From: Alphaproteobacteria bacterium
Lineage (GTDB): Bacteria; Pseudomonadota; Alphaproteobacteria; UBA8366
Length of the DNA: 64,000 nucleotides
Assembly (NCBI GenBank): GCA_965228975.1
Contig: OZ245851.1
Location: 53,940 to 117,939 of the forward strand
Reading direction: 5' to 3'
Under the pieces are notes generated by a model. It saw only the letters and a list, made by a program, of their open reading frames with translations, made no database searches and was not told the DNA's origin. The translations under genes and the position numbers were made by a program. Below are positions 801 through 46,699 of the stretch, piece after piece; the first letter of the stretch is position 1; each line of letters opens with the position of its first letter.

Positions 801-2627
801 TTAGCGACGCACTGAGTAGATCCGGAAGCCGCTCGTCGCTTCCCCGTCGGTCGGCACCGGCGTGAGCCAGTCCGGCGGATTGTCCGCCAGCAATCTGTTG
901 TAGAGCCGGCCGGGTTCGTCATCGTCGAGATAAAAGCGGCGTTCCGCGACCGATGGGCAGATCACGATGATACCGATGTCGCGGCGTTGCACGATCTCTT
1001 GGCTTTCCGCGTCGTCGGTGGCTGCGAGCAGCCTGTAGCTGTCCCAAATGCCGTCGCCGTTGCGGTGATAGGGCGCGCCGACCACCGAATGCGATGTGCG
1101 GTACAGGATTTCGGGACCGTGGTCGAGCAATCCGCCCACCACCGCCGGTTTTGCACCGAGGCCACTCCCGTCATTCAAGAGGTCTGCGATATTCGCGACC
1201 TCGCATTCCGGGTGTTTCTCGTCGATCGCCTTATCCGGTGTGACCGCCAGGACGAAGGTCCCGGACATCAGCGCGCCGAGGATGATGAAAAAAGTCGCGC
1301 CGCATTTGACGGCGAATTGCCGCGCTCCGGTCAGGACATGTTCGCTCCACTTCATCAAGCGGCCGACCATCTCGGCGAGCGCCCACACGCTGGCGATCTC
1401 GGTAAAGGGAGCGAAGCGCAGATGTTTCAGCGACAGGATGAAATAGACGCCTAGGACAAGTGTCAGAAATGCCCAGCGAAGCGATGCCGGATGGGTGCGC
1501 TCGCGCCACAGGATGAACCCTAAGAAGATGAGACAGGGCAGCCCGGCGCCGATGAAGAACAGGAAGCGGCCAAGTGACTTCATGTCCGTCGGCACCAGGG
1601 GCCTTAGCTCGGCGACCTGATCGTGCCAGATCGGCAGGATACGAGGGTCGACCGACGCGAACGGACCGGCGAAGAAATCCGGGAAGAAGAGTCCGAAGAC
1701 ACCGAGGCTGGCGATTCCCGCGAGTCCGGCGACCGACATGCGCGTCCGGAGCATTGTGTCCGCGCGGTTGTGGCCATTCTGGTAGAGCGCAAGCCAGAAT
1801 CCGGCCACGATGGCTGCAAGTGCTACATGCACGATCGAAAGCCGGTCATACTCAATATCGAACCAGCTGGTGACCGGTCGTTCGATGATCAAGGCTACGA
1901 GGACGGTCGCCAGAAATGTGCCGGCCACGATGAGCTGGTTTCGGGTGAACGCGCGGTCGCGCCACAACCAAACGGTTGCAAGTGTTGCCTGGCACAGCCC
2001 GACCAACAACAGCAGTTCGATGCTGACCCAGAGGGCAACGCCATAAATGGCACCGGCAGCGATCGCGGTCCGGACCGACTGCCGGTCGGCCAGAAGCCGC
2101 AATGTCGCGCCGATGCATAGGATGAATGCGACGAACTGCAGACTGTGATGATCGGCACGGCCGAGCATCGTGTAGCTGAGAACACCTGGTTGCAGCAGGA
2201 AGATTAATGCCGCCAGGATGGCGCGGTCGCGCCCGAGGACGGGCCGCGCGGCCCATGCCACCGCGATGCACGCGAAGAAGGCGACGATCGGCGACGTCAC
2301 CGCCCCGGCGAAGAACAGGGCTTGTGTATCGTCGGTAAACGGCGATGCCAATGCGGCGACCGTCAGGATGATCATGTCCATCGGGCGGGTCCAGTGCAGC
2401 GCGTCGCCGTAGGGTGCGTTGCTGCGTGCGATCAGCGACTCATGCCAACCGGTGCCGCCCAGCAGTTCCCCGATCCGCACCAGCCGCATGTAGCCGTCCG
2501 GTCCCAGCAGGTGGCCGTCGAAAACCGGCGCCGCCACGGTCTTTCCCAACATGGCATGCAGAGCCGCCCATAAGCCGAAAATGATCAGCCATGGTATAAG
2601 TGTCTTGGATTTGCCCAATGCGGCCAT
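801..2627 (-). CDS. polytopic membrane protein, GT-C-type glycosyltransferase candidate (STT3/PglB/ArnT-like)
   Basis: The ORF is open to 2678; I start it at ATG 2627 (MAALGKSKTLIPWLIIFGLW). There are many hydrophobic segments followed by a soluble C-terminus of about 130 aa. The first-loop motif GPDGYMRLVR...NAPYGDALHWTRP resembles the DGY/acidic loop of oligosaccharyltransferase-like GT-C enzymes. No WWDYG motif was seen. Confidence 0.7.
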   Translation of the reverse strand: MAALGKSKTLIPWLIIFGLWAALHAMLGKTVAAPVFDGHLLGPDGYMRLVRIGELLGGTGWHESLIARSNAPYGDALHWTRPMDMIILTVAALASPFTDDTQALFFAGAVTSPIVAFFACIAVAWAARPVLGRDRAILAALIFLLQPGVLSYTMLGRADHHSLQFVAFILCIGATLRLLADRQSVRTAIAAGAIYGVALWVSIELLLLVGLCQATLATVWLWRDRAFTRNQLIVAGTFLATVLVALIIERPVTSWFDIEYDRLSIVHVALAAIVAGFWLALYQNGHNRADTMLRTRMSVAGLAGIASLGVFGLFFPDFFAGPFASVDPRILPIWHDQVAELRPLVPTDMKSLGRFLFFIGAGLPCLIFLGFILWRERTHPASLRWAFLTLVLGVYFILSLKHLRFAPFTEIASVWALAEMVGRLMKWSEHVLTGARQFAVKCGATFFIILGALMSGTFVLAVTPDKAIDEKHPECEVANIADLLNDGSGLGAKPAVVGGLLDHGPEILYRTSHSVVGAPYHRNGDGIWDSYRLLAATDDAESQEIVQRRDIGIIVICPSVAERRFYLDDDEPGRLYNRLLADNPPDWLTPVPTDGEATSGFRIYSVRR

Positions 2628-2748
2628 GGGTGCGCGGTCCGTTGTGGATTGGGGCCCGCCGCAAGTCTTAATTAACAATGGTTACCAAAAGGTTGCCTGC
2701 GGCCCGACATAGAGTCCGCCGGCCCGCATAAAAGAAGGAGTGCGAAGA

Positions 2749-3801
2749 ATGCCGACAGTACCTGCCGACCGATTGGAGAAGATTGCCGCCACGCTGCTAA
2801 AGGGTGCGGGCGCCAGCGAGGAAGAGGCCTCGATTACCGCGCGGCATAGCATCGGGGCAAATTTGGCCGGTCACGATTCGCACGGGATCATCCAAATTCC
2901 GGTCTATATCGACCGGGTGAACAAGGAGCATATCGTTCCTGGGGCGCCCTTCGACATTATCCGGGAGAAGCCTACCACGACCGTGATCGACGGCAATTGG
3001 GGCTTCGGCTACGTGGTGTCCGAAAAGGCCATGGAAATCACCATCGACAAGGCCAAGAAGAACGGCGTCGCCGCGACCACGGTGTTCCGGCAAAGTCATG
3101 TCGGCCGTGTTGCCGATTATCCGATCATGGCGGCCAAGGAAGGTCTGATCGGCATGATGACCGCCGATTCGGGCCGCTCGCCGAAATCCGTCGTGCCGTT
3201 CGGCGGACGGGAACCCCGCCTCGGCACGAACCCGATCAGCATCGCCATGCCCTCGAACCTGGACGGCCCCTTCCATATCGACATGGCGACCTCGGCGGCG
3301 GCGGCCGGTAAGCTCAAGGTCGCGCAATCCCGCGGAACCGCGATCCCCGAGGGCTGGGTGCTCGACAAGGACGGCAACCCGTCGACCGATCCCTTCGCGT
3401 TGACCAAGGGCGGCGCGGTGCTGCCGCTCGGCGGACCGGAGGGACACAAGGGATATGGCCTTTCCGCGATGATCGAGGTGTTTTCCGGTATCCTGACCGG
3501 GCTCGGATTCGGGGTCGAACCCAGCGGTCGGCATAACGACGGCGTCTTCATGGCGGCGTTTGACGTCGATGCCTTCAAGAATTTGGAAGAATTCAAGCAA
3601 GAGGTCACGGAGTTCGCCGCCTATCTCAAGGATACGCCGAAGGCTGCGGGCTTCGACGAGATCTTCTATCCCGGCGAGTTGGAATATCTGCGGACCCAAA
3701 AGGGGTTGGCCGAGGGCATCACCGTCGAGGACGCGACCTGGGAGAAGCTGGTCGGGCTCGCCAAGGAATACGGCGTCGCCGATGAATTGGAGATGAGCTG
3801 A
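2749..3801 (+). CDS. Ldh_2 family dehydrogenase (malate/L-lactate/ureidoglycolate dehydrogenase family)
   Basis: The translation (AGHDSHGI...GTNPISIAMP...AAGK) fits the Ldh_2 family. AAGAAGGAG sits 8 nt upstream of ATG 2749, so the track start at 2740 is probably too early. Confidence 0.85.
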   Translation: MPTVPADRLEKIAATLLKGAGASEEEASITARHSIGANLAGHDSHGIIQIPVYIDRVNKEHIVPGAPFDIIREKPTTTVIDGNWGFGYVVSEKAMEITIDKAKKNGVAATTVFRQSHVGRVADYPIMAAKEGLIGMMTADSGRSPKSVVPFGGREPRLGTNPISIAMPSNLDGPFHIDMATSAAAAGKLKVAQSRGTAIPEGWVLDKDGNPSTDPFALTKGGAVLPLGGPEGHKGYGLSAMIEVFSGILTGLGFGVEPSGRHNDGVFMAAFDVDAFKNLEEFKQEVTEFAAYLKDTPKAAGFDEIFYPGELEYLRTQKGLAEGITVEDATWEKLVGLAKEYGVADELEMS

Positions 3802-3828
3802 CGCACCGAAGAAACGGGAGAGTTTCGT

Positions 3829-4164
3829 ATGGCGGAAAATGAGAGCCGGTATGTCTTCCGCGCGAGTGCCGCGCCGCTTACGGAGGCCGGTCCCACGCTG
3901 AAGATCAAGGAGGCGCACATGCTCGACGGCATGGTGCTGCGCTATCAGGAGCGCAGTTCCGGCGGTCCGCCGGACGACTCGTGGTGCGAGACTGGGCACA
4001 GCGCCTATATCCTGTCCGGGAGACTGCGCTACGAGTTCCCGGATCACACGGTCGAGATCGGCCCGGGGGACATGGTGCACATTCCCGCCGGATACGAACA
4101 CCGCCACCGTCCCAGCGCGATCGGTGACGAGCCGGTGCGGTATTTTATCACCGAGTTCGAGTGA
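3829..4164 (+). CDS. cupin domain protein
   Basis: 111 aa with the cupin motif region GDMVHIPAGYEHRH. GGGAGAG RBS before the ATG. Confidence 0.7.
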   Translation: MAENESRYVFRASAAPLTEAGPTLKIKEAHMLDGMVLRYQERSSGGPPDDSWCETGHSAYILSGRLRYEFPDHTVEIGPGDMVHIPAGYEHRHRPSAIGDEPVRYFITEFE

Positions 4165-4251
4165 GTTAGGCCGCGAGCCGCTACCCGGCGTTACAATTGA
4201 AACAAAGCCGGGCCGATTCTGACATCGGGCCGAAAAGCCGATCATCTAGAA

Positions 4252-4282
4252 CCCGGCGCTATGGAAACACCATGGCGCCGGG
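4252..4282 (+). terminator. stem-loop downstream of the cupin gene (possible terminator)
   Basis: CCCGGCGCTATGG-AAACA-CCATGGCGCCGGG forms a 13-bp stem with one mismatch. It is followed by ATTGTCTTGCC, which is only a weak T-tract. Confidence 0.4.
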
Positions 4283-4356
4283 ATTGTCTTGCCTCTTCCC
4301 GACGCCGCCATGGCGCATTGTCCTCGCAGTGATATTTGGGAACAGGAACTTTCACC

Positions 4357-5373
4357 ATGAAATCCGTCATTTTCGGCGCAACCGTCTTGATAACGGCCCT
4401 GGCGAGCGCCGCGGAAGCGCGCGACCATCTGCACATCGTCAGCTCGCCCGGCGACTTCGTCTACACGTCGAAGGTCGCGGAGAGTTTTTCCCGCGAGTAT
4501 CGCCAGCCTGTACCGGTCGTCCGGAGCACCGGATCGCGAACGACGGTTCGAACATTCTGCGCCGGTATCGGCGTCGACCATCCCGACATCGTCAGCCTGC
4601 CGCGGCCCATGCAGCCCGCGGAGATCGACGAATGCCAGCGGAACGGGGTCAAGCGCATCACGCAGATCAAGGTCGGCTACGAAGCCGTCGTCCTCGCCCG
4701 CCAGCGCGGTGCGTTTCGCTTCGATGTGAACAAGGTGCATCTCTTCAAGGCCCTCGCCAAGGAAGTGCCCGTCCATGGTCGCATCGTGCCGAACCCGTAT
4801 AGGAAATGGAGCGAAATCGATCCGTTCCTGCCGCCGATCCCCATTCGCGTCATCGGCCCGCGAGACGGGACGGAAATCCGCCGGGCGTTCCTGAAGCTGG
4901 TCATGGACGAGGCTTGCCGGACCATGCCGGCGTTGACGGCCCTCGATGCGCCGCGCCGCGACAGGATTTGCACCACCTTTCGCAACGACGGCGCGTTTCG
5001 GGCGGTGTCGCGCGGCTATCAGGAAACCGTGCGGCTATTGGAGCGCGACTCCTCGCGGATCGCGATCATGCCGTTTTCCGTGTATCGGGAATGGGATGAA
5101 TCGCTGACGACCGTGCAGGTCGACAGCGTCCCGCCCAACCCGGTGACGGTTGCACAGAGCGAATATCCGATCATTTGCCCGGTTTTCCTCTACGTGAAGA
5201 CGCAGCATTTCAATCGGGTGCCGGGATTGTTGGAATTCGTCGTGGAATATACCAGCGATCACGCTTGGGGCCCGGACGGGTACCTGATCGAGGACGGTCT
5301 GATCCCGATGACCGAGCGGGATCGCCGGTGGCAGCGCGCCAACGCGATCGGCTTCACGCCGATGCGGCGTTAG
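4357..5373 (+). CDS. PstS-like (PBP type 2) periplasmic substrate-binding protein, orphan
   Basis: Signal peptide MKSVIFGATVLITALASAAEA. The overall pattern matches phosphate-binding-protein-like SBPs. No cognate permease or ATPase is adjacent. Confidence 0.65.
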   Translation: MKSVIFGATVLITALASAAEARDHLHIVSSPGDFVYTSKVAESFSREYRQPVPVVRSTGSRTTVRTFCAGIGVDHPDIVSLPRPMQPAEIDECQRNGVKRITQIKVGYEAVVLARQRGAFRFDVNKVHLFKALAKEVPVHGRIVPNPYRKWSEIDPFLPPIPIRVIGPRDGTEIRRAFLKLVMDEACRTMPALTALDAPRRDRICTTFRNDGAFRAVSRGYQETVRLLERDSSRIAIMPFSVYREWDESLTTVQVDSVPPNPVTVAQSEYPIICPVFLYVKTQHFNRVPGLLEFVVEYTSDHAWGPDGYLIEDGLIPMTERDRRWQRANAIGFTPMRR

Positions 5374-5444
5374 GGCGCGATTGTCTTGCGGCAGAAACGA
5401 CAGAGCCGGAATCCCGGGACGTGCCTGGGAATTCCGACTCTCCG

Positions 5445-6584
5445 TTAAACCTCCTTTCGGTCGCGCGGCTTGATCCGCACGAGGTCGTCGAGCACGCCGT
5501 CCATGCCGTTGCCGACAATGACGTTCCCGACCTTTTCGGACACCTTCTCAAGCGCCTCCAACTCCTTCAGCCGCAGGAGGATCGGGTTGTCCTCCATCAG
5601 CTTCGCGGTGTTCAGGAGGGATCGCGTCGCCGCCGTCTCCTCCCGGCGCTTGATCACGTTCGCCTGCGCGGTCTTTTCCGCCTCGATGACGCGGTTCATC
5701 AGTTCCCGCACGTCGCCGGGCAGGACGATGTCCTTGACCCCGGTCGCGGTTACCACAAGACCGTTCGCCTCGAGCTGCGGCACCAACCGCTCGGCGATCG
5801 CCGCGTTGATCCCCTGCTTGTCGCCCAGCACCTCTTCGAGGGTCCGGGTTCCGACCACCTGACGCAGAGCGAATTGAAGCTCCTTGTACAGGTAGTCCCG
5901 CAGGTCGGCCGTGACGGTCACCGCCGCCATCGGGTCGGCGATGCGGTAGACCGCGGTCACGTTGGCGCGGACGCCGATGCGGTCCTTGGTCAGCACGTCC
6001 TGACCCGTGACCTCGAGGGTCTGCAGACGCAGGTCGAGGGTCACCGCATCGACACGCTTGGCCGCCCGGATGAAGGCGTAGCGCCCCGGCGTCATCTGCC
6101 GGTCGAGCACGCCGTCCACGTACAACAGGGCGACATGTCCGGTCGGCACGTCGACGACCTGGATCAGGTCGGCGGCGTTGAGCCGGGCCAGCGGCGCCAC
6201 GAGCGCCTGCGGCAGATCGATCTCCGCCTCGACGTCCAGGGACCGGATCTCGATCTCCTGCAGCGTCTTGGCGTAGAACGCCCGCTTCCCCGGGCCAACC
6301 ACGTCGACCAGCTTGCCGCCGGCGAACACGAGGCCGAGCGCGTTGTCGGCCATGTCGGCGACGGCGAAGTGCTCGTCCACGACCTCCGGCCGCGTCAGGT
6401 ACAACGCGTCCAGTGCCGCGTCGCGGACCGGCATCTGCCGCAGGTCCAGCTTGCGAACCTCCGTGCGGCCGGACATCTGCCGCATCCGGCGGTAGGTTCC
6501 GGGTCCCAGAACCTTCTGGAAGACCCGGTCGCGGTACAGGAGCCCCAGCTCCGTCTCCGCGATCATATCCGTACGAAAAACCAT
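5445..6584 (-). CDS. SPFH/band-7 (slipin-like) domain protein
   Basis: 379 aa. Band-7 core (VLTKDRIGVRANVTAVYRI...) followed by a coiled region (IEAEKTAQANVIKRREETAA). AAGGAG RBS before the ATG. Confidence 0.85.
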   Translation of the reverse strand: MVFRTDMIAETELGLLYRDRVFQKVLGPGTYRRMRQMSGRTEVRKLDLRQMPVRDAALDALYLTRPEVVDEHFAVADMADNALGLVFAGGKLVDVVGPGKRAFYAKTLQEIEIRSLDVEAEIDLPQALVAPLARLNAADLIQVVDVPTGHVALLYVDGVLDRQMTPGRYAFIRAAKRVDAVTLDLRLQTLEVTGQDVLTKDRIGVRANVTAVYRIADPMAAVTVTADLRDYLYKELQFALRQVVGTRTLEEVLGDKQGINAAIAERLVPQLEANGLVVTATGVKDIVLPGDVRELMNRVIEAEKTAQANVIKRREETAATRSLLNTAKLMEDNPILLRLKELEALEKVSEKVGNVIVGNGMDGVLDDLVRIKPRDRKEV

Positions 6585-6941
6585 CGGTCTTCTCCTTTAC
6601 TTCTTTCGCACTCGGTGGAACGGAAAAGTTCCTAATGAATGAATAATCGAGGCAACCGGACGGAAACCGGCGGTCGGCCGTGGACCGTACGATCGCGGGG
6701 CCGTCTTCCGGCGGCGCGCGGGCGGGGGTTCCGGCCAAACCTGAAACCCGATGGGTCTCAGGCCGGTCCGGCGTGCCCGCCCGCGGTCCGCAGGGATCGG
6801 GACGCGCGAGCAGCGCGGTTCGAGGCGGCGTCGTGCCTGGCCTCGGCGCGGCGGGACAAACGTCCCGCCGATCCGAAACCTGGCTTCCGTCCGGCACCCC
6901 AGAAATCAATTTGGCTATAGATTCTGCTTTAAAGGCAGTTT

Positions 6942-7014
6942 CTGGATGGGAGGAATCGAACCTCCGACAGCTGAATCCTAAGTTCAGTGCTCTATCCAAC
7001 TGAGCTACATCATG
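6942..7014 (-). tRNA. tRNA-like gene with a class-I body and anticodon UAG; acceptor stem imperfect, so possibly a pseudo-tRNA
   Basis: Hand fold: D arm GCTC-AGTTGGATA-GAGC. Anticodon arm CTGAA-CTTAGGA-TTCAG. 5-nt variable loop CTGTC. T arm GGAGG-TTCGATT-CCTCC. Acceptor CATGATG/CATCCAG has 2 mismatches, no CCA is encoded, and the 5' end overlaps the CCA of the upstream tRNA. Confidence 0.45.
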
Positions 7015-7087
7015 GAGCCGATGACGGGACTCGAACCCGCGTCCTGCGGATTATGATCCGCTGCTCTACCAGCTGAGCTACATCGGC
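7013..7087 (-). tRNA. tRNA-Met-like gene (anticodon CAU) with encoded CCA; the anticodon loop appears 1 nt short
   Basis: Hand fold: acceptor GCCGATG/CATCGGC. D arm GCTC-AGCTGGTA-GAGC. Anticodon arm GCGGA-TCATAA-TCCGC. Variable loop AGGAC. T arm GCGGG-TTCGAGT-CCCGT. Ends TCCA. Total 75 nt. Confidence 0.6.
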
Positions 7088-7491
7088 GGGCTATCCGTCG
7101 TCGCGACACACGCGGGGCGCATTACGGGCGCCGGGCGCGCCGGCCGGGCATATGGAACCCGGACCATAGGACGCGGATGATCCTGCTAAAGGACCTAACG
7201 AATAACGCCTGACAGCCTAAACTCTGGGTGCCGGCTTTCGCCTATGTGGAAAAGTTAATCATTTGTCTTGCCCTTTTCTGTGTTTGCGCGTCGAGGAGGG
7301 CAAGACGCGTCTGGCAACGGCGCGTCAGGCCCTTGATCGGCCTCGTAAATTTGGTCTGAGTTCGTTCACGGATGGACTGGCCATCATGACTTCCTTACCT
7401 GATCTTCGTTACCAAGACGTTGCCCGAAGGCGAATGGAGGGCGCTTTTACGGTGATCCACGGTTGTAGGCAACCCCAATTCGATAGAGCGG

Positions 7492-7533
7492 ATAAAAAAG
7501 AAAAAACCGGTCGCGGCGGGCGCCGGACCGGTT
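7492..7533 (-). terminator. rho-independent terminator of the crotonase gene (potentially bidirectional)
   Basis: Stem AACCGGTC...GACCGGTT with an inner CGGC/GCCG pairing. On the minus strand it is followed by TTTTTTCTTTTTTATC. It lies about 35 nt after the TAA at 7571-7573. Confidence 0.8.
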
Positions 7534-7570
7534 CGTTTCTTGCCGGAATTCGGCCTGCCGGGTCAGTTCA

Positions 7571-8344
7571 TTACCGGCCCTTGCGTTTGATGAAATCGGG
7601 GAAGGCGTCCTCGGCCTTGGCGCCCGGCAGGACGTGCTTGGCGTAGTCCTTCTCCAAGGTCCATTGGTCGATCAGGCTGCGGCCCTTCTGTTGCAGCAAC
7701 AGGGACTTCACGCCCATGACCGATTTGCGGTCGTTGCCGGCGATCTGTTTCGCCAATTCCATGGTCTTGTCGCGCAGCTCGGCGCTCGGCACCAGATGGT
7801 TCAGCAGGCCGATGCGGTAGGCTTCCTCGGCCTTGACCACGCGGGCGCTGAACAGCAGTTCCTTGGCCATCGGCCAGCCGACCTGGTTCGGCAGGGTCCA
7901 GGTGCTGTTGATTCGGCCGTAGGCGGCGGCCAGGAAGCGGAATTCGGTGCGCTCGCAGCCGATCCGCATGTCGACCGACGACGCCAGAACCGCGCCGCCG
8001 CCATAGGCGAGCCCGTTCATCATGCCGATGGTCGGCTTCAGACAGGCGCTGACCTCGTAGCCGCTGAGCGTGCGCACGGCCGCGCTGCGGTCGAGCTTGC
8101 CTTCGGCTTCCAGCCGGTCGTTCTCACGCTGCTCGTGGATGTCGCCGCCGGCGGTGAAGGCGCGCTCGCCGGAGCCGGTGATGACGATGCAGCCGACCTC
8201 GTCGTCCTCTTCCGCGCGCAGCACCGCCGTCTGCAGTTCGGCGGTGAGCTTGTTGTTCATCGCATTCAGGACTTTCGGGCGATTCAGCGTCACGATTGCC
8301 ACGCCGTCCTCTTTTTCCACCAGGATATGCTCGTAGTCGCTCAT
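7571..8344 (-). CDS. enoyl-CoA hydratase/isomerase (crotonase) family protein
   Basis: 257 aa with crotonase hallmarks: VAIVTLNRPKVLNAM, FTAGGDI, GLAYGGG. Confidence 0.9.
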   Translation of the reverse strand: MSDYEHILVEKEDGVAIVTLNRPKVLNAMNNKLTAELQTAVLRAEEDDEVGCIVITGSGERAFTAGGDIHEQRENDRLEAEGKLDRSAAVRTLSGYEVSACLKPTIGMMNGLAYGGGAVLASSVDMRIGCERTEFRFLAAAYGRINSTWTLPNQVGWPMAKELLFSARVVKAEEAYRIGLLNHLVPSAELRDKTMELAKQIAGNDRKSVMGVKSLLLQQKGRSLIDQWTLEKDYAKHVLPGAKAEDAFPDFIKRKGR

Positions 8345-8459
8345 CGGCGGCGCTTCCTTTCGTTCTGATCAGATGGCCCGGCAGGCGCGGGCGGTTTTTC
8401 CAATCTTACCGTAGAGGAGCGCAAGAGCGCGATTCGGTCACGGCGCGGTGTGCGGCGGG

Positions 8460-9326
8460 TCAGACCTCGAAACGATAGACCTTGCCGTCGCGGCGGATAT
8501 GCCCGGCGGTCGGCGTGGCGAAATGGGTACCGATGACCAGCACCGGCGTGTCCGCATACCGGTCGAGCAGTTTCTCCCGAGTCGCGCGCGCGGCGTTCGA
8601 ATCCACGTCGGCGCTGCTGACCCAGTCCGGCCGCGCCATCTGGCAGGGGTGATGCATCACGTCGCCGGTGATCAGCGCTTCCTCGCCCTTCGACGCGATG
8701 CGGACGCTGACATGCCCCGGTGTGTGACCGGGCGTCGGTTCCAGCCGAACCTCGTCGCAAATCACCTCGTCCGACGCGACGAAGTCGACAAGGCCCGCAT
8801 CGAACACCGGTTTGACCGAGTCCGAAAAGCAATCGTCTCCGCGTCCGTTGGGGCCGCTGTGGGCATGCCAGTGGTCCCATTCGGCCCGCCCGATCAAATA
8901 GCGCGCGTTCGGGAAGGTGGGCACCCATTTGCCGTCGACCAGCATGGTGTTCCAGCCCACGTGATCCACGTGCAGATGGGTGCACAGGACCGTATCGATC
9001 GACTCGCGCGGATAGCCCGCTTCGGCGATGTCGTCGAGGAATGGGCCGGTGCGCATGTGCCAGCCGGGAATGGCCCGCTGCTTGTCGTTGCCAAGGCACG
9101 TGTCGATCATGATCCGCCGGGTGCCCGTATCGACGATCAGCGCGTGGATGCTCATGATCAGCCGCCCGTCCGGGTCCATGAAATGCGGCTTCAGCCAGTC
9201 GATGTCCACCACGTTCTCCCGCGTTGCGTCGGGCAGGATGAACTTGGTGCCGCCGGTCACCTGAATCTCGATGACCCGGGTCACTTTGACGTCGCCGATC
9301 CGCCACGGCTCCATGATACGTTCCAT
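8460..9326 (-). CDS. MBL-fold metallo-hydrolase
   Basis: HxHxDH motif (CTHLHVDHVGW). I start it at ATG 9326 (MERIMEPWRIGD), which has an upstream GGA-type RBS. This avoids overlap with the upstream gene; the track start at 9425 is rejected. Confidence 0.85.
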   Translation of the reverse strand: MERIMEPWRIGDVKVTRVIEIQVTGGTKFILPDATRENVVDIDWLKPHFMDPDGRLIMSIHALIVDTGTRRIMIDTCLGNDKQRAIPGWHMRTGPFLDDIAEAGYPRESIDTVLCTHLHVDHVGWNTMLVDGKWVPTFPNARYLIGRAEWDHWHAHSGPNGRGDDCFSDSVKPVFDAGLVDFVASDEVICDEVRLEPTPGHTPGHVSVRIASKGEEALITGDVMHHPCQMARPDWVSSADVDSNAARATREKLLDRYADTPVLVIGTHFATPTAGHIRRDGKVYRFEV

Positions 9327-10897: not shown

Positions 10898-11175
10898 ACG
10901 CGCTTCCTTAAGTCGAAAAATGACGCTTCCAAATGGCAATCCGGATTCTGCGCCCTAGTTATTTTGATCAGGGGATGAGTATCACGGTCGCGGCGACTTT
11001 CCGAATGTCCGGATTTTAGGCTGTTCGTTTGATCGATTACACGGACGAACCGGCGTGAGCGCAAGTTTGTCAGTAATCGACGCGATTGCCGAAGCGGCGC
11101 TTTGTGGCTGTCGCCACTGCTGTTATAGAGTCCCCCAATTGCCTTGCGGACGATCGACGAGGGAGAGTACCGACA

Positions 11176-12033
11176 ATGTTTAAACGATTTTTTGCTGCGC
11201 TGATCCTGGTGTTCGGGTTTGGGTCGGCGGTTGCGGCGGAGACGTTCGTCTTTACCGCCATACCCGATCAGGACGAGAGTCGCTTGAAAGAGCGTTTCGG
11301 AAAAATCGCGGACTATCTGTCCAAGGAATTGAACACGACCGTGAAATACGTGCCGGTGAAGAGCTATGCCGCCGCGGTTACGGCCTTCAAGAACAACCAG
11401 GTTCAGCTCGCGTGGTTCGGCGGCCTGTCGGGCGTGCGCGCAAGGGCTTCGGTGCCGGGGTCGGTGGCGATCGCGCAAGGATACGAGGACCAATTCTTCG
11501 AGACCTATTTCATCGCGAACGAGAAGGCCGGATTGGCGCTGTCCAAGGAATTCCCGAAAGAGATCGCTGGCAAGACCTTCACCTTCGGGTCCAAGGGGTC
11601 CACGTCGGGCCGCCTGATGCCCGAGTTCCATATCCGCCGGAACTTCGGCAAGGCACCCGAAAAGGTGTTCGAACGGGTGGGTTTCAGCGGCGATCACTCC
11701 CGGACGATCGCATTGGTGCAGTCCGGCGCGTATCAGGTCGGCGCGGTGAACTACAAGGTCTGGAAGAAGGAACTGGACGCCGGCAAGATCGATCCCAAGA
11801 AGGTCTCGATCATCTGGCGGACGCCGCCTTACCCCGACTATCAGTGGAGCATCCGCGGCGACGTGGATAAGAAATTCGGCGCGGGCTTCCAGAAGAAGGT
11901 GACGGGGGCTTTGCTGGGGATGAAGGATCCAGCGCTGCTCGAGTCCTTTCCGCGCAGCAAGTTCATTCCGGCGACCAACGACGACTACAAGATGATCGTG
12001 GATACCGGAAAGGAAATCGGTCTTATCGACTGA
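11176..12033 (+). CDS. PhnD-type ABC substrate-binding protein; putative selenium oxyanion (selenate/selenite) binding protein by selD linkage
   Basis: Signal peptide MFKRFFAALILVFGFGSAVAA. PhnD-like pattern (TFVFTAIPDQDESRL..., AWFGGLSG). GGGAGAG RBS before ATG 11176. It is the first gene of an operon that ends in the SelD fusion. Confidence 0.8.
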   Translation: MFKRFFAALILVFGFGSAVAAETFVFTAIPDQDESRLKERFGKIADYLSKELNTTVKYVPVKSYAAAVTAFKNNQVQLAWFGGLSGVRARASVPGSVAIAQGYEDQFFETYFIANEKAGLALSKEFPKEIAGKTFTFGSKGSTSGRLMPEFHIRRNFGKAPEKVFERVGFSGDHSRTIALVQSGAYQVGAVNYKVWKKELDAGKIDPKKVSIIWRTPPYPDYQWSIRGDVDKKFGAGFQKKVTGALLGMKDPALLESFPRSKFIPATNDDYKMIVDTGKEIGLID

Positions 12034-12689
12034 TGGCGCTTGTCGACCTCTCTCTCGCGACCGCGGGCTACAACGGCGCGAACGTCCTGCACGACGTGTC
12101 GTTGTCGATCGAGCGGGGCGAGAAGGTCGCATTGGTCGGCCGGAGCGGGGCGGGCAAGTCCACCCTGCTTCGGCTGATATACGAGCGTATCGATGGCGAG
12201 GCCGCGATGGTTCCGCAGGAACTCGGCCTCGTCCGCGCGCTCACCGTGTTCCACAACATCTACATGGGTCAGCTCAATCGCCACAGCACCTGGCGCAATG
12301 TGGTGAACTTGGTGCGGCCCATGCAGCAGGAAGTCGAGAATATCGGCGGCATCGTGAAGACGCTTGGCCTGGAGGACGAGTTGTTCTCCGCCGTCGGTGC
12401 GTTGTCCGGCGGCCAGCAGCAGCGGACGGCCGTGGGCCGGGCCTTGTATCAGCGGACCGACATTCTGCTCGGCGACGAACCGGTATCGGCGGTGGACGAG
12501 CATCAGTCCCGGGCGATCCTGGAAAGCATCGCCGACGCGAAGCCCACGGTGATCCTGGCGATGCATGATATCGATCTCGCGCTCGCCTATTCCGATCGGG
12601 TTATCGGGTTGGACGCCGGTCGCATCGTCATGGACGAGTCGACCGACGGTATGAAAGCCACCGACCTCGACTTCCTCTATCGAGGCTGA
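12033..12689 (+). CDS. ABC transporter ATP-binding protein (PhnC-like)
   Basis: Walker A GRSGAGKST, signature LSGGQQQR, Walker B ILLGDEP. TGATG overlap with the SBP gene. Confidence 0.9.
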   Translation: MALVDLSLATAGYNGANVLHDVSLSIERGEKVALVGRSGAGKSTLLRLIYERIDGEAAMVPQELGLVRALTVFHNIYMGQLNRHSTWRNVVNLVRPMQQEVENIGGIVKTLGLEDELFSAVGALSGGQQQRTAVGRALYQRTDILLGDEPVSAVDEHQSRAILESIADAKPTVILAMHDIDLALAYSDRVIGLDAGRIVMDESTDGMKATDLDFLYRG

Positions 12690-12694
12690 TCGGC

Positions 12695-14191
12695 ATGCAG
12701 GCGGTTTGGCGCTATTCTCCGGCGGTTCGGACCAGTCTGACTTTCGTCGGCATCGCTTTCCTGTGTTTGGTTTTCGCCGATATCTCGATCTCGACGGTAA
12801 ACCCGTGGACCGAGATGGGGCGTTTGCTGTTCGGCATCGTGACCCCGGATTTCCTGGCCACCGAAAGCCTGGTCAACGCCCTCGTGCAGACGATCGCCTT
12901 CGCAATCCTGGGCGTCGTCGTCGGGAATATCGCCGGGTTTTTCCTCGCGCTGATTTTTCACTATCGCGCCGTGCGCGTCGGTTGCGCATTCGTGCGCGCG
13001 ATCCATGAGCTGTTTTGGGCGCTGATCTTTCTGCAGGTTTTCGGCCTATCGCCGATCACCGGCATACTGGCCATCGGCATCCCCTATGCAGGGATCATCG
13101 CGAAGGTCTACGCCGAGATCATGGAAGAGGCCGACACCACGCCGCTCAAATCGGTGCCGCCGAACACGACCGCTACATCCGTTTTCATCTTTGTGCGCTT
13201 GCCGGACGTATGGGCGCATTTCAAGACCTACTCGCTCTACCGTCTCGAGTGCGGATTGCGGTCGAGCGCGGTGCTCGGCTTCGTCGGCCTGCCGACGTTG
13301 GGCTATTACCTCGAAACGGCGTTCCGCCAAGGGCATTATTCGGAAGTTTCCGCCCTGTTGATCATGTTCTACATCGTGATCGCGACCATGCGGGTATGGA
13401 TGCGCCGTAACTTGCTGCCGCTATACATCCTGGCCGCAATCCTGCTGCTGCCTTGGGGCGGCAACGAAATCTACGCCGACAACATCGTCCGGTTCTTCAC
13501 CCAGGACATCGTCCCGCAGCCGCTGCGCGACGGCGTGTTCGCCACGGGTGCGCTAACCGGGTTCGGCGAGTGGCTGTCGACGCTGTTCTTCGATCAGGCG
13601 CTGCCCGGCGCGATCGATACGCTGCAATTGACGATGATCGCACTGGTTGCGACCGGTGTCTTGTCGCTGATCTTTTTCCCGTTGTTGTCGCCGCTGTTCT
13701 TCGGCCGCGGCGGCCGGTTGGGCGGGCATGTGTTCCTGGTCGTCGTCCGGTCCACGCCGGAATACATTCTGGCGTATGTCTGCCTGCAGCTTTGGGGGCC
13801 GTCGATGCTGCCCGCGATCATCGCCTTGTCGCTGCATAACGGCGCGATCATTGCGCATCTGATCGGCCGCTATACGGAACACATGAAAGTTCGGGTCGAC
13901 GCGCCGCGCGGGCTCAATCTCTATTTCTACGAATCGGTGCCGCGCGTCTACGGGCAGCTCTTGGCGTTCCTGTTCTATCGCTGGGAAGTGATTTTACGTG
14001 AGACCGCAATTCTAGGCATGCTGGGTATCGCGACGCTCGGCTTCTATGTGGACAGCGCCTTTGCGGATATCCGGCTGGACCGCGCGTTGGTGCTGATATT
14101 GTTCACGGCCGGCCTGAATATTTGCGTCGATGCGTTGTCGCGGCACATCCGCGCGCGGCTGCGTCTCAAGACGACCATCGAACATGGGTGA
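12695..14191 (+). CDS. ABC transporter permease (PhnE-like, duplicated/fused)
   Basis: 498 aa, hydrophobic throughout, with two PhnE-like halves. Starts 5 nt after the ATPase gene. Confidence 0.85.
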   Translation: MQAVWRYSPAVRTSLTFVGIAFLCLVFADISISTVNPWTEMGRLLFGIVTPDFLATESLVNALVQTIAFAILGVVVGNIAGFFLALIFHYRAVRVGCAFVRAIHELFWALIFLQVFGLSPITGILAIGIPYAGIIAKVYAEIMEEADTTPLKSVPPNTTATSVFIFVRLPDVWAHFKTYSLYRLECGLRSSAVLGFVGLPTLGYYLETAFRQGHYSEVSALLIMFYIVIATMRVWMRRNLLPLYILAAILLLPWGGNEIYADNIVRFFTQDIVPQPLRDGVFATGALTGFGEWLSTLFFDQALPGAIDTLQLTMIALVATGVLSLIFFPLLSPLFFGRGGRLGGHVFLVVVRSTPEYILAYVCLQLWGPSMLPAIIALSLHNGAIIAHLIGRYTEHMKVRVDAPRGLNLYFYESVPRVYGQLLAFLFYRWEVILRETAILGMLGIATLGFYVDSAFADIRLDRALVLILFTAGLNICVDALSRHIRARLRLKTTIEHG

Positions 14192-14196
14192 TCCTC

Positions 14197-16461
14197 GTGC
14201 AATCGACCACACCGATCCTTAAAGACCTCGTTCTCGTCGGCGGCGGCCACAGTCATGTCGGCGTGCTCCGGTCCTTCGGCATGAAGCCGATACCGGGCGT
14301 GCGCCTGACGGTCCTTTGCCGCGACGTGGACACGCCCTATTCGGGGATGTTACCGGGGCTGGTGGCGGGGCATTACACTTTCGAGGAAACCCATATCGAT
14401 CTCGGTCCGCTGGCCCGCTTCGCCAATGCGCGTTTCTACAACGACGACGTGATCGGGATCGACCCGCGTCAGCGGTTGGTGTTGTGCAAGAACCGCCCGC
14501 CGGTGTCCTACGACTTGCTGTCCATCAACATCGGGTCCGCCCCGGCGACCTGGGAAACGCCGGGCGCCGAGGGCAATGTGGTGCCGGTCAAGCCGATCAA
14601 CCGGTTCGTCGCGCATTGGGAACGCCTGCGTGAACGCATCCTGCTGCGCGAGGACCCGGTGCGGATCGGCATCGTCGGCGGCGGCGCGGGCGGGGTGGAA
14701 TTGCTGCTCGCCATCCAATACCGGCTGAAGACCCTGTTGGCCGGCCAAGGGCGGACCGACGCGCATCTGGATTATCATCTGATCAGCGAAGAGTCGGATA
14801 TCCTGACCACGCATAACCCGCTGGTCCGGTCCAAGTTCCGGCGTATCTTCAATGAGCGCGGCATCAACTTTCACGCGGATACGCGCGTCGCGTCGGTCGC
14901 GCCCGGCAAGGTAATAGCCGCCGACGGCGAGAGCATCGCGTTGGATGAAATCCTCTGGGTGACCCGGGCCGGCGCCGCATCGTGGATCAAGGAGTCCGGA
15001 TTGGCGGTCGACGAGCACGGCTTCATGCAAGTCGGCGACACCCTGCAGTCGACGTCGCACCCCGAAATCTTCGGCGCGGGCGATATCGCGGCGATGGTCA
15101 ATCATCCGCGCCCGAAGGCGGGCGTCTTTGCCGTGCGTCAGGGCCCGCCGTTGACGCGAAACCTGCGGCGCATGCTGGTCGGCAAGTCCGCGCGACCGTT
15201 CAGGCCGCAGCGCGAGTTCCTCAGCCTGATCAGCACGGGGGACAAATATGCGGTTGCCTCGCGTTCCAAATGGTCGGTAGAGGGCAAGCTGGTCTGGCGT
15301 TGGAAGGACTGGATCGACCGGCGTTTCATGCGCAAGTTCAGCGAGCTCCCGGAAATGGACACGGAGGAGAAGTCCGATCTGCCGCGTGGTCTGGCGGGCG
15401 AGGAGGTGATCAAGGAAATCTCCGCGGTCGCCATGCGCTGCGGCGGCTGTGGCGCCAAAGTCGGTGCGACGGTGTTGCAGCGGGCCTTGTCGCAGTTGGA
15501 GCCGGTGACGCGCGATGACGTTTTGATCGGATTACACGAACCGGACGATGCTGCGGTGGTCGAAGTGCCGCCGGGCAAGGTGATGGTGCATACGGTCGAT
15601 TCGTTCCGCGCCATTGTCGACGACCCGTATCTTTTCGGCCGCATCGCCGCCAATCACAGCCTCGGCGATATCTACGCGATGGGCGCCGATCCGCAGACCG
15701 CGCTGGCAATCGCCACAGTGCCCTACGGGCTGGAGGAGAAGGTCGAGGACGTATTGTCCCAAATGCTGACCGGCGCAATGGAGGTCTTGCGGGAATCGAA
15801 CACGTCGCTGGTCGGTGGCCACACCAGCGAAGGCGCGGAGCTATCGCTTGGTTTTTCCGTTAACGGCCTGATCGACCGCGAGAAGGTGTTGCGCAAGGGC
15901 GGCATGCAGCCGGGCGACCGGCTGGTGCTGACGAAGGCGATCGGAACCGGCACATTGTTCGCTGCCGACATGCGCCTGAAAGCGAAAGGGCAGTGGATCA
16001 AGGACGCCCTCGCCTCGATGGTGCTGTCGAACTACAAGGGCGCGCAATGCCTGTCCGACCACGGCGCGAATGCGTGCACCGACGTCACCGGCTTCGGGTT
16101 GTTGGGACATTTGGTAGAGATGACCAAACCGTCGGGCGTCGACGTGGAATTGGACCTCGGCGCCATCCCGTATCTCGATGGCGCGCAGGAAACAGTGGCG
16201 GCCGGCATTACCAGCACCTTGCAGCCGCAGAACCTGCGGCTCCGACGTGCCATATCCAATATTGCCGCGGTCGGCGAGGATCCGCGCTTTCCGTTGATCT
16301 TCGATCCGCAGACCGCCGGCGGTTTGCTGGCCAGCGTGCCGCAGGAGCGGGCCGAGGATTGCGTCGGCGCATTGCGTGATTTGGGATATGACCGGACGGC
16401 GATCATCGGCACCGTATTGCCCGAGGGGAACCAACTCGAACCGATTACGGTGCGTGCGTAA
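14197..16461 (+). CDS. senC: bifunctional FAD/NAD(P)-binding pyridine-nucleotide-disulfide oxidoreductase-like domain fused to selenide, water dikinase (SelD; SenC-like)
   Basis: The N-terminal part has two Rossmann motifs (LVLVGGGHSHVG; IGIVGGGAGGVE). From about 15400 it is SelD: AMRCGGCGAKVG (Cys-type active site), DDPYLFGRIAANHSLGDIYAMGA, DVTGFGLLGHL, FDPQTAGGLL. Start is GTG 14197 or 14188, directly after the permease stop; the upstream part of the track ORF overlaps the permease and is rejected. Confidence 0.85.
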   Translation: MQSTTPILKDLVLVGGGHSHVGVLRSFGMKPIPGVRLTVLCRDVDTPYSGMLPGLVAGHYTFEETHIDLGPLARFANARFYNDDVIGIDPRQRLVLCKNRPPVSYDLLSINIGSAPATWETPGAEGNVVPVKPINRFVAHWERLRERILLREDPVRIGIVGGGAGGVELLLAIQYRLKTLLAGQGRTDAHLDYHLISEESDILTTHNPLVRSKFRRIFNERGINFHADTRVASVAPGKVIAADGESIALDEILWVTRAGAASWIKESGLAVDEHGFMQVGDTLQSTSHPEIFGAGDIAAMVNHPRPKAGVFAVRQGPPLTRNLRRMLVGKSARPFRPQREFLSLISTGDKYAVASRSKWSVEGKLVWRWKDWIDRRFMRKFSELPEMDTEEKSDLPRGLAGEEVIKEISAVAMRCGGCGAKVGATVLQRALSQLEPVTRDDVLIGLHEPDDAAVVEVPPGKVMVHTVDSFRAIVDDPYLFGRIAANHSLGDIYAMGADPQTALAIATVPYGLEEKVEDVLSQMLTGAMEVLRESNTSLVGGHTSEGAELSLGFSVNGLIDREKVLRKGGMQPGDRLVLTKAIGTGTLFAADMRLKAKGQWIKDALASMVLSNYKGAQCLSDHGANACTDVTGFGLLGHLVEMTKPSGVDVELDLGAIPYLDGAQETVAAGITSTLQPQNLRLRRAISNIAAVGEDPRFPLIFDPQTAGGLLASVPQERAEDCVGALRDLGYDRTAIIGTVLPEGNQLEPITVRA

Positions 16462-16465
16462 TGTT

Positions 16466-17431
16466 CTATGTGAGCGCGGCGAGGAGCGACCGCCATGCGG
16501 CTTCTTCGTGCTGCGGCTTGAACAGGTGGGCGCGTTCGCGGCATTGGCGCGTCAACGTCTTTAGATAATCGCGGTCGTGCTCGATCCGGTCCAGGCAGGC
16601 CGCAAGCGCAGCCGTGTCGCCGACCGGGAAGTAACCGGCATAATCTTCGCCCAACAGTCCGATCGATCCCGATATGTCCGACGCGATCACCGGGACGTCG
16701 GCGGCAACCGCTTCCGAAACCACATTTGCGCCGCCTTCCATGATCGAACTCAGCACCATCGCGTGGGACGAATCGAAAAGCCGACGCACCTGCCATCCCG
16801 GCGCCTCGCCGCGCCAGTCGTATCTTGGGTTGGTGCTCATCTCACGGCGCGCGCGCTCGGCCCAGCTTTCGTCATGGGCTTTGCCCAGATGCACGATGCG
16901 GATACGGGAATCGTCCGGCAGCAACCGCGCGGCTTCGGCGGCGCGTAGGGGGTCCTTCTCCTCGCGCAGGTGGCCGATGACACAGATGTCCACAGTGCGC
17001 CGCGACGGGCGGCGCGTCCGGTTGAGCGGCAAGGCGGATTGGTGGATGACATGCAATTTGCCATGGAACCGGTCCGGGATGTCCCGATGCACCAATCCGT
17101 GCAGACACACCAGCGCGTCGGCGATGTCCATCGAGTGATAGGTCTCGTCCGGATGGCTCTGCTGGAACTTGTTGATATCGGTTCCCGCCAGCAAGACGAT
17201 CAACGGGCGGTCCGGATACCGTTCGCGGAAGCGGAGGATCGACTTCGCGCTGCGCCAGGCATGCACGGCGATCATCGCGTCGACCGGCTCGTTCTCATAC
17301 TCCGTCGCGATGATGGCCTCATGACCGAGGCGGCGCAGGATGTCCTGCCATCGCACCGCCGTCGTTCGGTTGCCGTTGCGCGATTGTTTGCCTGCGGGCG
17401 TGATAAGGCTAATCTTCAAGCCGTTTCGCAT
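16466..17431 (-). CDS. senB: SenB-like selenosugar synthase (selD-associated glycosyltransferase family)
   Basis: Starts MRNGLKISLITPAGKQSRNGNRTTAVRWQDILRRLGH and contains ...EGGANVVSEAVAADVPVIAS, matching my memory of the selD-linked GT family later named SenB. Start taken at ATG 17431. Confidence 0.7.
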   Translation of the reverse strand: MRNGLKISLITPAGKQSRNGNRTTAVRWQDILRRLGHEAIIATEYENEPVDAMIAVHAWRSAKSILRFRERYPDRPLIVLLAGTDINKFQQSHPDETYHSMDIADALVCLHGLVHRDIPDRFHGKLHVIHQSALPLNRTRRPSRRTVDICVIGHLREEKDPLRAAEAARLLPDDSRIRIVHLGKAHDESWAERARREMSTNPRYDWRGEAPGWQVRRLFDSSHAMVLSSIMEGGANVVSEAVAADVPVIASDISGSIGLLGEDYAGYFPVGDTAALAACLDRIEHDRDYLKTLTRQCRERAHLFKPQHEEAAWRSLLAALT

Positions 17432-17445
17432 TAGATGGTTTGCCC

Positions 17446-18759
17446 ATGACTGAACCCGTCCCCACGTCCCGCTTGATCGACATGATGACAAGCGCGCGGC
17501 GTCGCACGTTGGAAATGGTCCAAGGGTTGACCCCCGACCAGCTCGTTGGCCCCAAGCTGCCGACGTTGAATCCGTTGATTTGGGAAATCGGTCATGTCGG
17601 CTGGTTCTATGAAAACTTCATCCTGCGCCGATTGTACAATCAAGAACCGATGCTCGCGACAGGAGATGCACTTTATGACTCCATCGCGATCGCGCATGAA
17701 ACGCGGTGGGATTTGCCGGTCCTGCCGCTGAACGAAATCCTCGCCTACATGCAGGATGTGCAGGATGCGTTGGTCGACCGTCTCGGCGGCAAGGAGATGG
17801 CGGACGAACGGCACAGCTATCTGTACCAGTTCACAGTCTTTCACGAAGACATGCACACAGAGGCTTTTACCTGGGCGCGGCAGACATTGGCATACCCGAC
17901 GCCGGTCTTCGAGGGCGGTCCGGTTGGTCGGCGGGCACCGGAGACCGGGCCGCTGTCCGGCGACGTGGTGATCATGGGCGGTACGTACCGGATGGGCGCT
18001 GAAAAAAATGCACCCTTTCTATTCGACAATGAAAAATGGGCGCGCCCGGTGACCGTTGCGCCGTTCAAGATGGCGCGGGCGGCGGTCACGAATGGCGAAT
18101 TCGCCGAATTCGTCGCGGACGGCGGATATCAGACGGAATCGCATTGGGACGCGGACGGCTGGGCCTGGCGGCAAGAAGCCGCTGCCGAACACCCGGTCTA
18201 TTGGGTTCCGGACGAGAATGGCGGGTGGGGCGTCCGGCGGTTCGATCGCGTGTTCGAACTGCCGCTCCATCAGCCGGTCATCCACGTCTGCTGGCACGAG
18301 GCCAACGCCTACTGCCGTTGGGCCGGCCGGCGATTGCCGACCGAGGCGGAATGGGAGTTGGCGGCGACGACGGTACCGGAAACGACCGACGGCGTTTTGC
18401 AGAAGCGCCGGTACCCTTGGGGCGACGAGGAGCCGACGCCGGACCACGCAAACCTCGACGGCTTTGCATTGGGTTGTGTCGATGTCGCGGCGCATCCGGC
18501 GGGTGACAGCGCCTATGGTTGCCGGCAGATGATCGGCAATGTCTGGGAGTGGACGCAGGACGTCTTCAAGCCGTTTCCCGGGTTCGCGCCGGACGACTAC
18601 AAGGAATACTCGCAGCCGCTGTTCGATTCGACGCGCGTGCTACGGGGCGGCGCGTGGACCACGCGGGGGCGAATGATCACGTCGCTGTACCGCAATTATT
18701 TCGGTCCGGACCGGCGCGATGTGTTCGCCGGGTTCCGGACCTGTGCCTTGTCCGCCTAA
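17446..18759 (+). CDS. senA: SenA-like C-Se bond-forming non-heme iron enzyme (DinB_2 + FGE-sulfatase fold, EgtB/OvoA superfamily)
   Basis: NPLIWEIGHVGWFYENF and FHEDMHTEAF supply the DinB-type His ligands. The FGE-sulfatase-like C-terminal half contains GGTYRMG, HVCWHEANAYCRWAGRRLPTEAEWE and RVLRGGAW. Adjacent to the SenB-like and SelD genes. Confidence 0.75.
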   Translation: MTEPVPTSRLIDMMTSARRRTLEMVQGLTPDQLVGPKLPTLNPLIWEIGHVGWFYENFILRRLYNQEPMLATGDALYDSIAIAHETRWDLPVLPLNEILAYMQDVQDALVDRLGGKEMADERHSYLYQFTVFHEDMHTEAFTWARQTLAYPTPVFEGGPVGRRAPETGPLSGDVVIMGGTYRMGAEKNAPFLFDNEKWARPVTVAPFKMARAAVTNGEFAEFVADGGYQTESHWDADGWAWRQEAAAEHPVYWVPDENGGWGVRRFDRVFELPLHQPVIHVCWHEANAYCRWAGRRLPTEAEWELAATTVPETTDGVLQKRRYPWGDEEPTPDHANLDGFALGCVDVAAHPAGDSAYGCRQMIGNVWEWTQDVFKPFPGFAPDDYKEYSQPLFDSTRVLRGGAWTTRGRMITSLYRNYFGPDRRDVFAGFRTCALSA

Positions 18760-46684: not shown

Positions 46685-46699
46685 CTCCCAACGGACGCT

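Follow-up and report, generated by a model that had tools for sequence, protein, structure and literature searches.

Described SelD fusions and the locus analysed

The in vivo selenium donor to selenophosphate synthetase (SelD; selenide, water dikinase) is an old question, and free selenide is both toxic and scarce. The fusions of SelD to an N-terminal flavoprotein, which are very abundant, are among the genomic data that hint most clearly at a dedicated reductase supplying the kinase. The present analysis deals with one of these fusion genes, located at positions 14197..16461 (+) of a window of 64,000 nucleotides (i.e., the whole stretch analysed, positions 53,940 to 117,939 of contig OZ245851.1, from an alphaproteobacterium of the UBA8366 lineage). 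The flavoprotein-SelD (Ndh-SelD) fusion is already known, and this gene is a typical member of the family: it was described in 2008 by Zhang et al. (PMC2432076), who put forward the reduction of a selenium compound, for use by SelD, as the task of the oxidoreductase. In the GOS study (PMC2398784), the Ndh-SelD fusions numbered in the hundreds, made up ~40% of the marine Cys-SelDs and were enriched in aquatic and marine bacteria with an aerobic lifestyle; all of them had a CxxC at the active site of SelD, vs <5% of the single-domain SelDs. According to Mariotti et al. 2015 (PMC4561486), this is by far the commonest SelD fusion, and it has been horizontally transferred to protists. The protein of the window shares the architecture of the family (TIGR03169 followed by TIGR00476, with the N-terminal flavoprotein, the Cys-type SelD and the CxxC hallmark) and no structural difference from it was found. 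However, the published descriptions tie the fusion to selenocysteine and selenouridine traits, whereas the copy analysed here lies in a selenoneine cluster. The idea of the initial annotation, in which the flavoprotein half supplies reduced selenium to the kinase, is the hypothesis published in 2008 (PMC2432076), and it still has the standing of an inference.

The second described system to which this locus has to be compared is the sen cluster of Variovorax paradoxus, for which the chemistry of SenC, SenB and SenA has been reconstituted (Kayrouz et al. 2022, preprint 10.1101/2022.04.13.486033). The same study counts >800 sen clusters and notes a putative selenate transporter beside many of them. 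In V. paradoxus too, SenC is homologous to SelD, and its gene clusters with those of SenB (TIGR04348) and SenA. From the numbers of its mutated residues, which reach up to 316 (PMC11929427), the characterised SenC appears to be a single-domain protein. The putative SenC of the window, unlike it, carries the flavoprotein domain, and the gene order is also different, with selD and senB convergent and senB and senA head-to-head. The mobilisation of selenium would be coupled to the kinase along similar lines in another fusion: the NifS-SelD proteins of Geobacter sp. FRC-32, Naegleria and Acanthamoeba (PMC4561486) also have an N-terminal presumed selenium-delivery enzyme on SelD, although the partner is unrelated, being similar to pyridoxal phosphate-dependent selenocysteine lyases/desulfurases instead of a flavoprotein.

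Architecture of the fusion protein

A single uninterrupted open reading frame (ORF) extends over 14122..16461 (+). The most plausible start codon within it is the GTG at 14197, with 5 nt separating it from the stop codon of the preceding permease gene (TGA, 14189-14191); the resulting 754 aa fit the length of the nearest homologues (751-757 aa). Two genes wrongly joined, or a frameshift, could be discarded from this single ORF and from the existence of close homologues that are full-length. The N-terminal two-Rossmann flavoprotein domain, with a fold similar to that of NDH-2 (14224..15339), corresponds to the full length of the NCBIfam model TIGR03169 (Nterm_to_SelD; aa 10-381, 503.1 bits, cutoff 310). 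It is followed by an acidic interdomain linker (aa 382-412, 15340..15432) and by the SelD domain (15433..16350), which is covered by TIGR00476 (selD; aa 413-718, 306.5 bits, cutoff 125). In Pfam, the protein matches Pyr_redox_2 (aa 10-316, E 2.8e-22), AIRS (450-558) and AIRS_C (571-744), and all these domain matches are far above chance. The anatomy given in the initial annotation, i.e., a flavoprotein half joined to a complete Cys-type SelD directly after a putative selenium oxyanion importer, is thereby borne out by the ORF, Pfam and NCBIfam alike, and the motifs it quoted are indeed in place: GGGHSH at aa 15-20 (nt 14239-14256), GGGAGG at aa 161-166 (nt 14677-14694) and AMRCGGCGAKVG at aa 412-423 (nt 15430-15465). 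Two points had escaped it, namely that the fused domain has an NCBIfam model of its own and that the gene is placed in a sen cluster (though senA and senB were named among its checks).

The AlphaFold2 model of the fusion protein has a mean predicted local distance difference test score (pLDDT) of 87.3 and a predicted TM-score of 0.87, with confident Rossmann folds. The low-confidence stretches (pLDDT <50) are aa 389-401, within the linker, and aa 407-423, which comprise the CxxC loop. The linker residues P385, M387, G398, S409 and A412 are invariant among close relatives. No solved structure holding the fusion was found in the PDB with Foldseek.

Regarding the C-terminal half, its HMMER alignment to the SelD of E. 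coli (3u0o, E 2.5e-50) matches C418 to Cys17 and K421 to Lys20, and Foldseek superimposes it on 2zau with a TM-score of 0.85 and a root-mean-square deviation (rmsd) of 2.1-2.4. Judging from these alignments, it is a complete SelD with residues aligning to the catalytic Cys17 and Lys20 of the E. coli enzyme. C415 is an additional cysteine that creates a CxxC with C418, so that the glycine-rich loop of the SelD domain reads C415-G-G-C418-G-A-K421 (15439..15459). The membership of the protein in the family and its activity as a SelD are, on these grounds, very probable. Of the fused proteins, 119/120 close and 88/102 diverse ones contain the motif C..C[GAS].K, and five fusions from metagenomes carry CRGCASK or CGGCAAK. 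Among the 14 diverse fusions without the motif, 11 lack the whole glycine-rich loop, two (P0191 and P0233) keep the first Cys only, and the remaining one is a shorter protein of 650 aa (P0255). The sole exception in the close set (P0089) also retains the first Cys only. In other words, the CxxC is kept in nearly all the fusions that retain the glycine-rich loop.

The variants P0089, P0191 and P0233 have a Gly aligned with the catalytic Cys17 (MRCGGGGAK, MRCGGGGSK and IRCGGGSAK, respectively), which could be due to sequencing errors or could mean that the upstream Cys is able to take over. The loop-less fusions (P0124, P0127, P0130, P0135, P0142, P0154, P0162, P0178, P0188, P0237 and P0252; ~11% of the diverse set) keep an AIRS-like kinase fold without the Cys/Lys loop, and at a guess, they may belong to TIGR04369, the "oxidoreductase/SelD-related fusion protein" family (fusion_not_SelD), whose members have the same two-domain layout. 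The protein of the window was also considered as a candidate for TIGR04369 and rejected, since its score (478.6 bits) is under the cutoff of 700 and its catalytic Cys/Lys loop is present.

The flavoprotein half

When compared with the PDB by Foldseek, the N-terminal half is closest to NDH-2 enzymes (type II NADH:quinone oxidoreductases; 4nwz, 9a63_B and 9a5s_A, TM-score 0.86-0.90, rmsd 2.6-2.8), which comprise the enzyme of Caldalkalibacillus thermarum (4nwz) and models of YjlD and YutJ from B. subtilis, and sulfide:quinone oxidoreductases (SQRs) come second (0.73-0.78). As far as sequence and model allow, it is a flavoprotein with two dinucleotide-binding domains and an NDH-2 fold. Its second nucleotide motif, GGGAGGVE, resembles the GGGLTGVE of YjlD, an NDH-2, and contains no cysteine. 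Both glycine-rich motifs and ~30 other positions of the domain are invariant or nearly so across relatives with 41-60% identity, including the unfused ones. H18, Y48, S49, K132, K307, R314, K370 and D374 are conserved family-wide, in fused and unfused proteins, and we infer that the basic character of several of them would suit an anionic acceptor. As for the first dinucleotide motif, throughout the TIGR03169 family it reads GGGH[SA]H, with a His at the position of the third Gly in GxGxxG and an invariant H18.

The cysteines of this half are of special relevance for the chemistry that may be expected from it. In an alignment of 150 diverse members of the family, 41-60% identical to the query domain, no column with a conserved Cys was found: C41 is mostly replaced by Ser or Thr, and C97 is Cys in just 39%. 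Likewise, no redox disulfide motif of the CxxxxC or CxxC type exists in aa 1-400. The NCBIfam models of disulfide oxidoreductases (glutathione reductase, thioredoxin reductase, MerA and lipoamide dehydrogenase) give about 20-25 bits, with cutoffs >400, and the type III SQR model NF049943 gives 40 bits (E 2e-10, cutoff 525). No NDH-2 model is among the 22 NCBIfam families listed for the protein. A disulfide reductase of the glutathione reductase, thioredoxin reductase or MerA type was consequently rejected, as it lacks the CxxxxC and its matches stay at 20-25 bits, and so was a persulfide chemistry similar to that of SQRs, given the lack of a conserved Cys. Both the SQR-type and the glutathione reductase-type chemistries are therefore unlikely in this domain, as far as its sequence tells. 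This is the point at which the proposal of an SQR-like half working through a persulfide-like carrier, made in the initial annotation, does not hold, also because the fold is nearer to NDH-2 than to SQR. If there is any thiol-bound selenium carrier, it is more likely to be the CxxC on the SelD loop.

Association with selenoneine genes

The fusion gene is followed by senB, encoding the selenosugar synthase (16466..17491, -; TIGR04348, 413.5 bits, cutoff 300), and by senA, encoding the EgtB-like selenoneine synthase (17440..18759, +; NF041186, 483.2 bits, cutoff 420; DinB_2 and FGE-sulfatase in Pfam). Since this SelD homologue clusters with SenB and SenA, its sequence context identifies it as the putative SenC of an alphaproteobacterial sen (selenoneine) cluster. 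No egtD, selA, selB, second selD or second paralogue of the N-terminal domain was found in the 64-kb window.

The family as a whole is large. A search with the full-length protein retrieved at least 8000 protein clusters, the best 120 of which are all full-length fusions (67-96% identical), and relatives are encoded in at least 575 species-representative genomes. With the N-terminal domain only, 2416 representatives (clusters at 50% identity) were obtained at E <= 1e-30; among the best 150 of them, 102 have a fused length (>=650 aa), 32 are short (<=430 aa) and 16, probably fragments, are intermediate. In 29/32 of the short ones, the protein looks complete and unfused.

The neighbourhoods were surveyed in the 80 closest genome loci, a sample biased towards relatives of the query, as is the metagenome sample referred to below. 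All 80 carry the full-length fusion, and the closest one (L001, from a metagenome-assembled genome of Alphaproteobacteria) has the same seven-gene order with 69-83% identity. SenB is encoded within 10 kb in 49/80 of these loci (34/54 where the flanks reach >=4 kb on both sides), the substrate-binding protein of the importer in 39, SenA in 25 and an adjacent EgtD in 15, with the permease, substrate-binding protein and ATPase genes adjoining the fusion in 24-39 of the 80. The betaproteobacterial loci encode SenB-like proteins with 35-45% identity, and these are true SenB, with 426.9 bits. Across the wider set of metagenome loci, 27/80 contain sen genes, or 6/22 with good flanks. The fusion thus acts as SenC frequently, but not specifically, in terms of genomic association; apart from lineage-specific genes, no recurrent neighbours were found in the loci without sen genes.

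Eleven loci of Marinobacter and relatives (L026, L037, L038, L042, L043, L047, L048, L051, L054, L055 and L062) contain the fusion, SenB and the ABC importer and no homologue of SenA within 10 kb, even at E 1e-3. These loci may lead to a selenosugar or to some other selenometabolite as the final product; alternatively, senA may be encoded elsewhere. Two small conserved ORFs (~132 and ~215 aa) lie directly upstream of the fusion in 10/80 genome loci (checked in L026, L047 and L051).

A further scan of metagenomes, seeded with the 29 unfused proteins, returned 65 fused loci, 4 loci that were scored as unfused and 11 truncated at contig ends. Of the four, one is on a contig too short to judge, and another (L127), whose ORF has 102 aa, seems to have a broken reading frame. 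In L146, an unfused TIGR03169 protein (491.5 bits; 5028-6179) is encoded between selB (2497-4515, +) and selA (7132-8586, -), which suggests, as a single case, that the flavoprotein is linked to selenium even when it is unfused. The fourth locus, L152, is considered below.

A proposed route to selenophosphate

The explanation that we favour, with a probability of roughly 0.55, is that the protein is a known Ndh-SelD fusion that would act as the selenophosphate synthetase of the selenoneine cluster, with its N-terminal domain reducing selenium. According to it, the ABC importer would bring in a selenium oxyanion, the N-terminal domain would use NAD(P)H and FAD to make or regenerate a reduced selenium species at the kinase site, and the SelD half would form selenophosphate from this reduced selenium and ATP. 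SenB would then turn selenophosphate into a selenosugar, and SenA would transfer the selenium to hercynine, which must come from elsewhere because there is no egtD in the window. A functional link between flavoprotein and selenium would be favoured by the conservation of the fusion, the presence of the CxxC in the fusions and the placement of the unfused protein in L146. For the selenium-reducing role of the N-terminal domain by itself, the odds appear about even.

How the electrons would reach selenium is a matter on which only a tentative proposal can be made. Since the N-terminal domain has no conserved cysteine of its own, and since the CxxC specific to the fusions sits on a flexible loop ~35 residues past the helix that matches the I379-bearing helix of the NDH-2 from C. 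thermarum, selenium might be held on C415/C418 as a selenotrisulfide or a selenenylsulfide and be reduced there directly by the flavin. This detail is doubtful. The protein would be, in that case, an analogue in one polypeptide of the thioredoxin/thioredoxin reductase route for selenite, in which free selenide need not accumulate. In E. coli, selenoprotein synthesis requires the CxxC of thioredoxin, by which, together with thioredoxin reductase and NADPH, selenite is specifically reduced (Shimizu et al. 2021, PMC8538045). That route likewise places a CxxC dithiol and an NAD(P)H-dependent flavoprotein upstream of SelD and serves, by analogy, as a precedent in functional terms for selenium being held on a CxxC at that position. 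Nevertheless, thioredoxin reductase has its own redox CxxC adjacent to the flavin, whereas the N-terminal domain has none and the CxxC of the fusion belongs to the kinase, so the two arrangements are not homologous. If the direct transfer from the flavin to CxxC-bound selenium were true, the fusion would be a self-contained machine from selenite adduct to selenophosphate, would be, for a large part of the aerobic and marine Cys-type SelDs, the physiological donor of selenium, and would represent a mode of flavin-to-Se/S transfer not described for the NDH-2-like fold. The operon formed by importer, fusion, senB and senA offers a compact and convenient system for testing the role of the flavoprotein.

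Several points weigh against this explanation. The domain has no redox-active cysteines across the 150 aligned members, and glutathione reductase, thioredoxin reductase, MerA and SQR pass electrons from the flavin to sulfur or selenium precisely via redox-active cysteines; to our knowledge, a direct flavin-to-Se/S reduction has no close precedent. The unfused homologue in L152 has unrelated neighbours, with no selenium genes nearby, and the 11/102 diverse fusions without the Cys/Lys loop, as well as the three with the first Cys only, do not fit easily. Full-text literature searches retrieved no experimental study of the N-terminal domain, and a 2026 review mentions none, in agreement with the remark of the initial annotation that its function is not experimentally established. 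In addition, the SenC of V. paradoxus worked with added selenide (10.1101/2022.04.13.486033), and since it seemingly consists of a single domain, the flavoprotein would be an accessory, not required by the pathway as such.

Alternative roles of the flavoprotein domain

Among the alternatives, the one that survives best, still rather unlikely, is that the N-terminal domain is a maintenance or repair reductase, which would keep the Cys or CxxC of SelD (and the selenium bound to it) reduced in oxic cells without generating selenide. It would account for the CxxC being a hallmark tied to the fusion and for the enrichment of the latter in aquatic and marine bacteria that live aerobically (PMC2398784). 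The genomes with relatives retrieved in the present analysis belong mostly to aerobic proteobacteria (e.g., Marinobacter, Halomonas and Polaromonas). It is also in line with the dithiothreitol and the anaerobiosis that SelD assays normally need (methods of 10.1101/2022.04.13.486033). However, its chemistry is as problematic as that of the favoured selenium-reducing role, with no redox cysteine beside the flavin, and it explains the unfused homologue flanked by selB and selA no better. Both overlap heavily and are hard to separate by sequence.

The similarity to NDH-2 raises the second alternative, in which the domain would be an ordinary NDH-2-type NADH:quinone oxidoreductase, or a membrane tether near the importer or the respiratory chain, with no selenium chemistry. 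NDH-2 enzymes are the best matches in the PDB both in sequence and in fold. The domain shares with 4nwz and YjlD the two Rossmann domains and the C-terminal beta/helix element (TM-score 0.86-0.87, rmsd 2.6-2.8), redox cysteines are absent from all of them, and its helix WKDWIDRRF aligns with the LKKLIDMRY of the C. thermarum enzyme, the segment containing I379, which is the residue changed in the deposited I379E variant. The identity, however, is low (17-23%, and ~21-23% for 4nwz and YjlD), the family has its own NCBIfam model and GGGHSH is a further difference. Q317 and Q321 of the C. thermarum NDH-2, which we take to contact the quinone, align with V310 and the family-invariant R314, respectively. 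NDH-2 carries a C-terminal membrane anchor; in its place, after the last NDH-2-like helix, the fusion has the acidic disordered linker to SelD. Together with the lasting link to SelD and CxxC, which points to a selenium-related chemistry, this makes the alternative improbable.

About as little credit can be given to a catalytically dead scaffold, for instance for oligomerisation or the docking of a partner: the unusual GGGHSH, with its His at the usual third Gly, and the lack of any reported activity would be compatible with it, but the invariant glycine-rich motifs, the ~30 conserved positions and the confident Rossmann folds form a pattern typical of active enzymes. Finally, a domain working in the SQR direction, i.e., oxidising excess selenide or sulfide for detoxification or for Se/S discrimination before phosphorylation, is very improbable: SQRs are the second-best structural neighbours, including 3sz0, crystallised with selenide, and there is the weak match to the type III model, far under its cutoff, but there is no conserved cysteine anywhere in the domain, the second motif is NDH-2-like and cysteine-free, and oxidising the substrate of its own kinase would be counter-productive.

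Neighbouring genes and other features of the window

The importer genes precede the fusion in the same orientation and are closely spaced. The first of them encodes a PhnD-type ABC importer substrate-binding protein (11086..12033, +; Pfam Phosphonate-bd, E 3.5e-61) with 381.7 bits for TIGR04553 (cutoff 250), a model named "putative selenate ABC transporter substrate-binding protein", whose specificity is a computational label (hypoth_equivalog). It is followed by a PhnC-like ABC ATPase (12033..12689, +; Pfam ABC_tran, E 4.2e-23; TIGR02315 phnC, 163.9 bits, under the cutoff of 266) and by a duplicated PhnE-like permease of 498 aa (12695..14191, +), which matches TIGR01097 (PhnE) in two stretches with 200.4 bits (cutoff 216.7).

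On the other side, the fusion gene (+) and senB (-) are convergent, with 4 nt separating their stop codons. The true start of senB is probably Met21, at ~17431, to judge from the alignment of the TIGR04348 model, which starts at aa 27. The longest ORFs of senB and senA, arranged head-to-head, overlap (17491 vs 17440), and their probable starts (~17431 for senB; 17440 or 17446 for senA) are ~10-15 nt apart, in such a way that each promoter would fall within the other gene. In the surroundings of the operon, neither a nearby Rfam match nor a promoter of the sigma-70-like type was found, and no terminator-like site separates selD from senB. This convergent/head-to-head layout recurs in the alphaproteobacterial loci L001, L004, L009, L016 and L023, whereas in the betaproteobacterial loci senB precedes the fusion in the same orientation and egtD is adjacent.

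Elsewhere in the window, two tRNA genes are located back to back at 6941-7014 and 7016-7087 (-), with essentially no spacer; ARAGORN calls the first one tRNA-Leu and assigns no anticodon to the second, and Rfam scores both as tRNA. A SAM_alpha riboswitch, which is an alphaproteobacterial marker, is located at 46688-46767 (-) (RF00521 in Rfam, with 58.6 bits vs a gathering score of 36).

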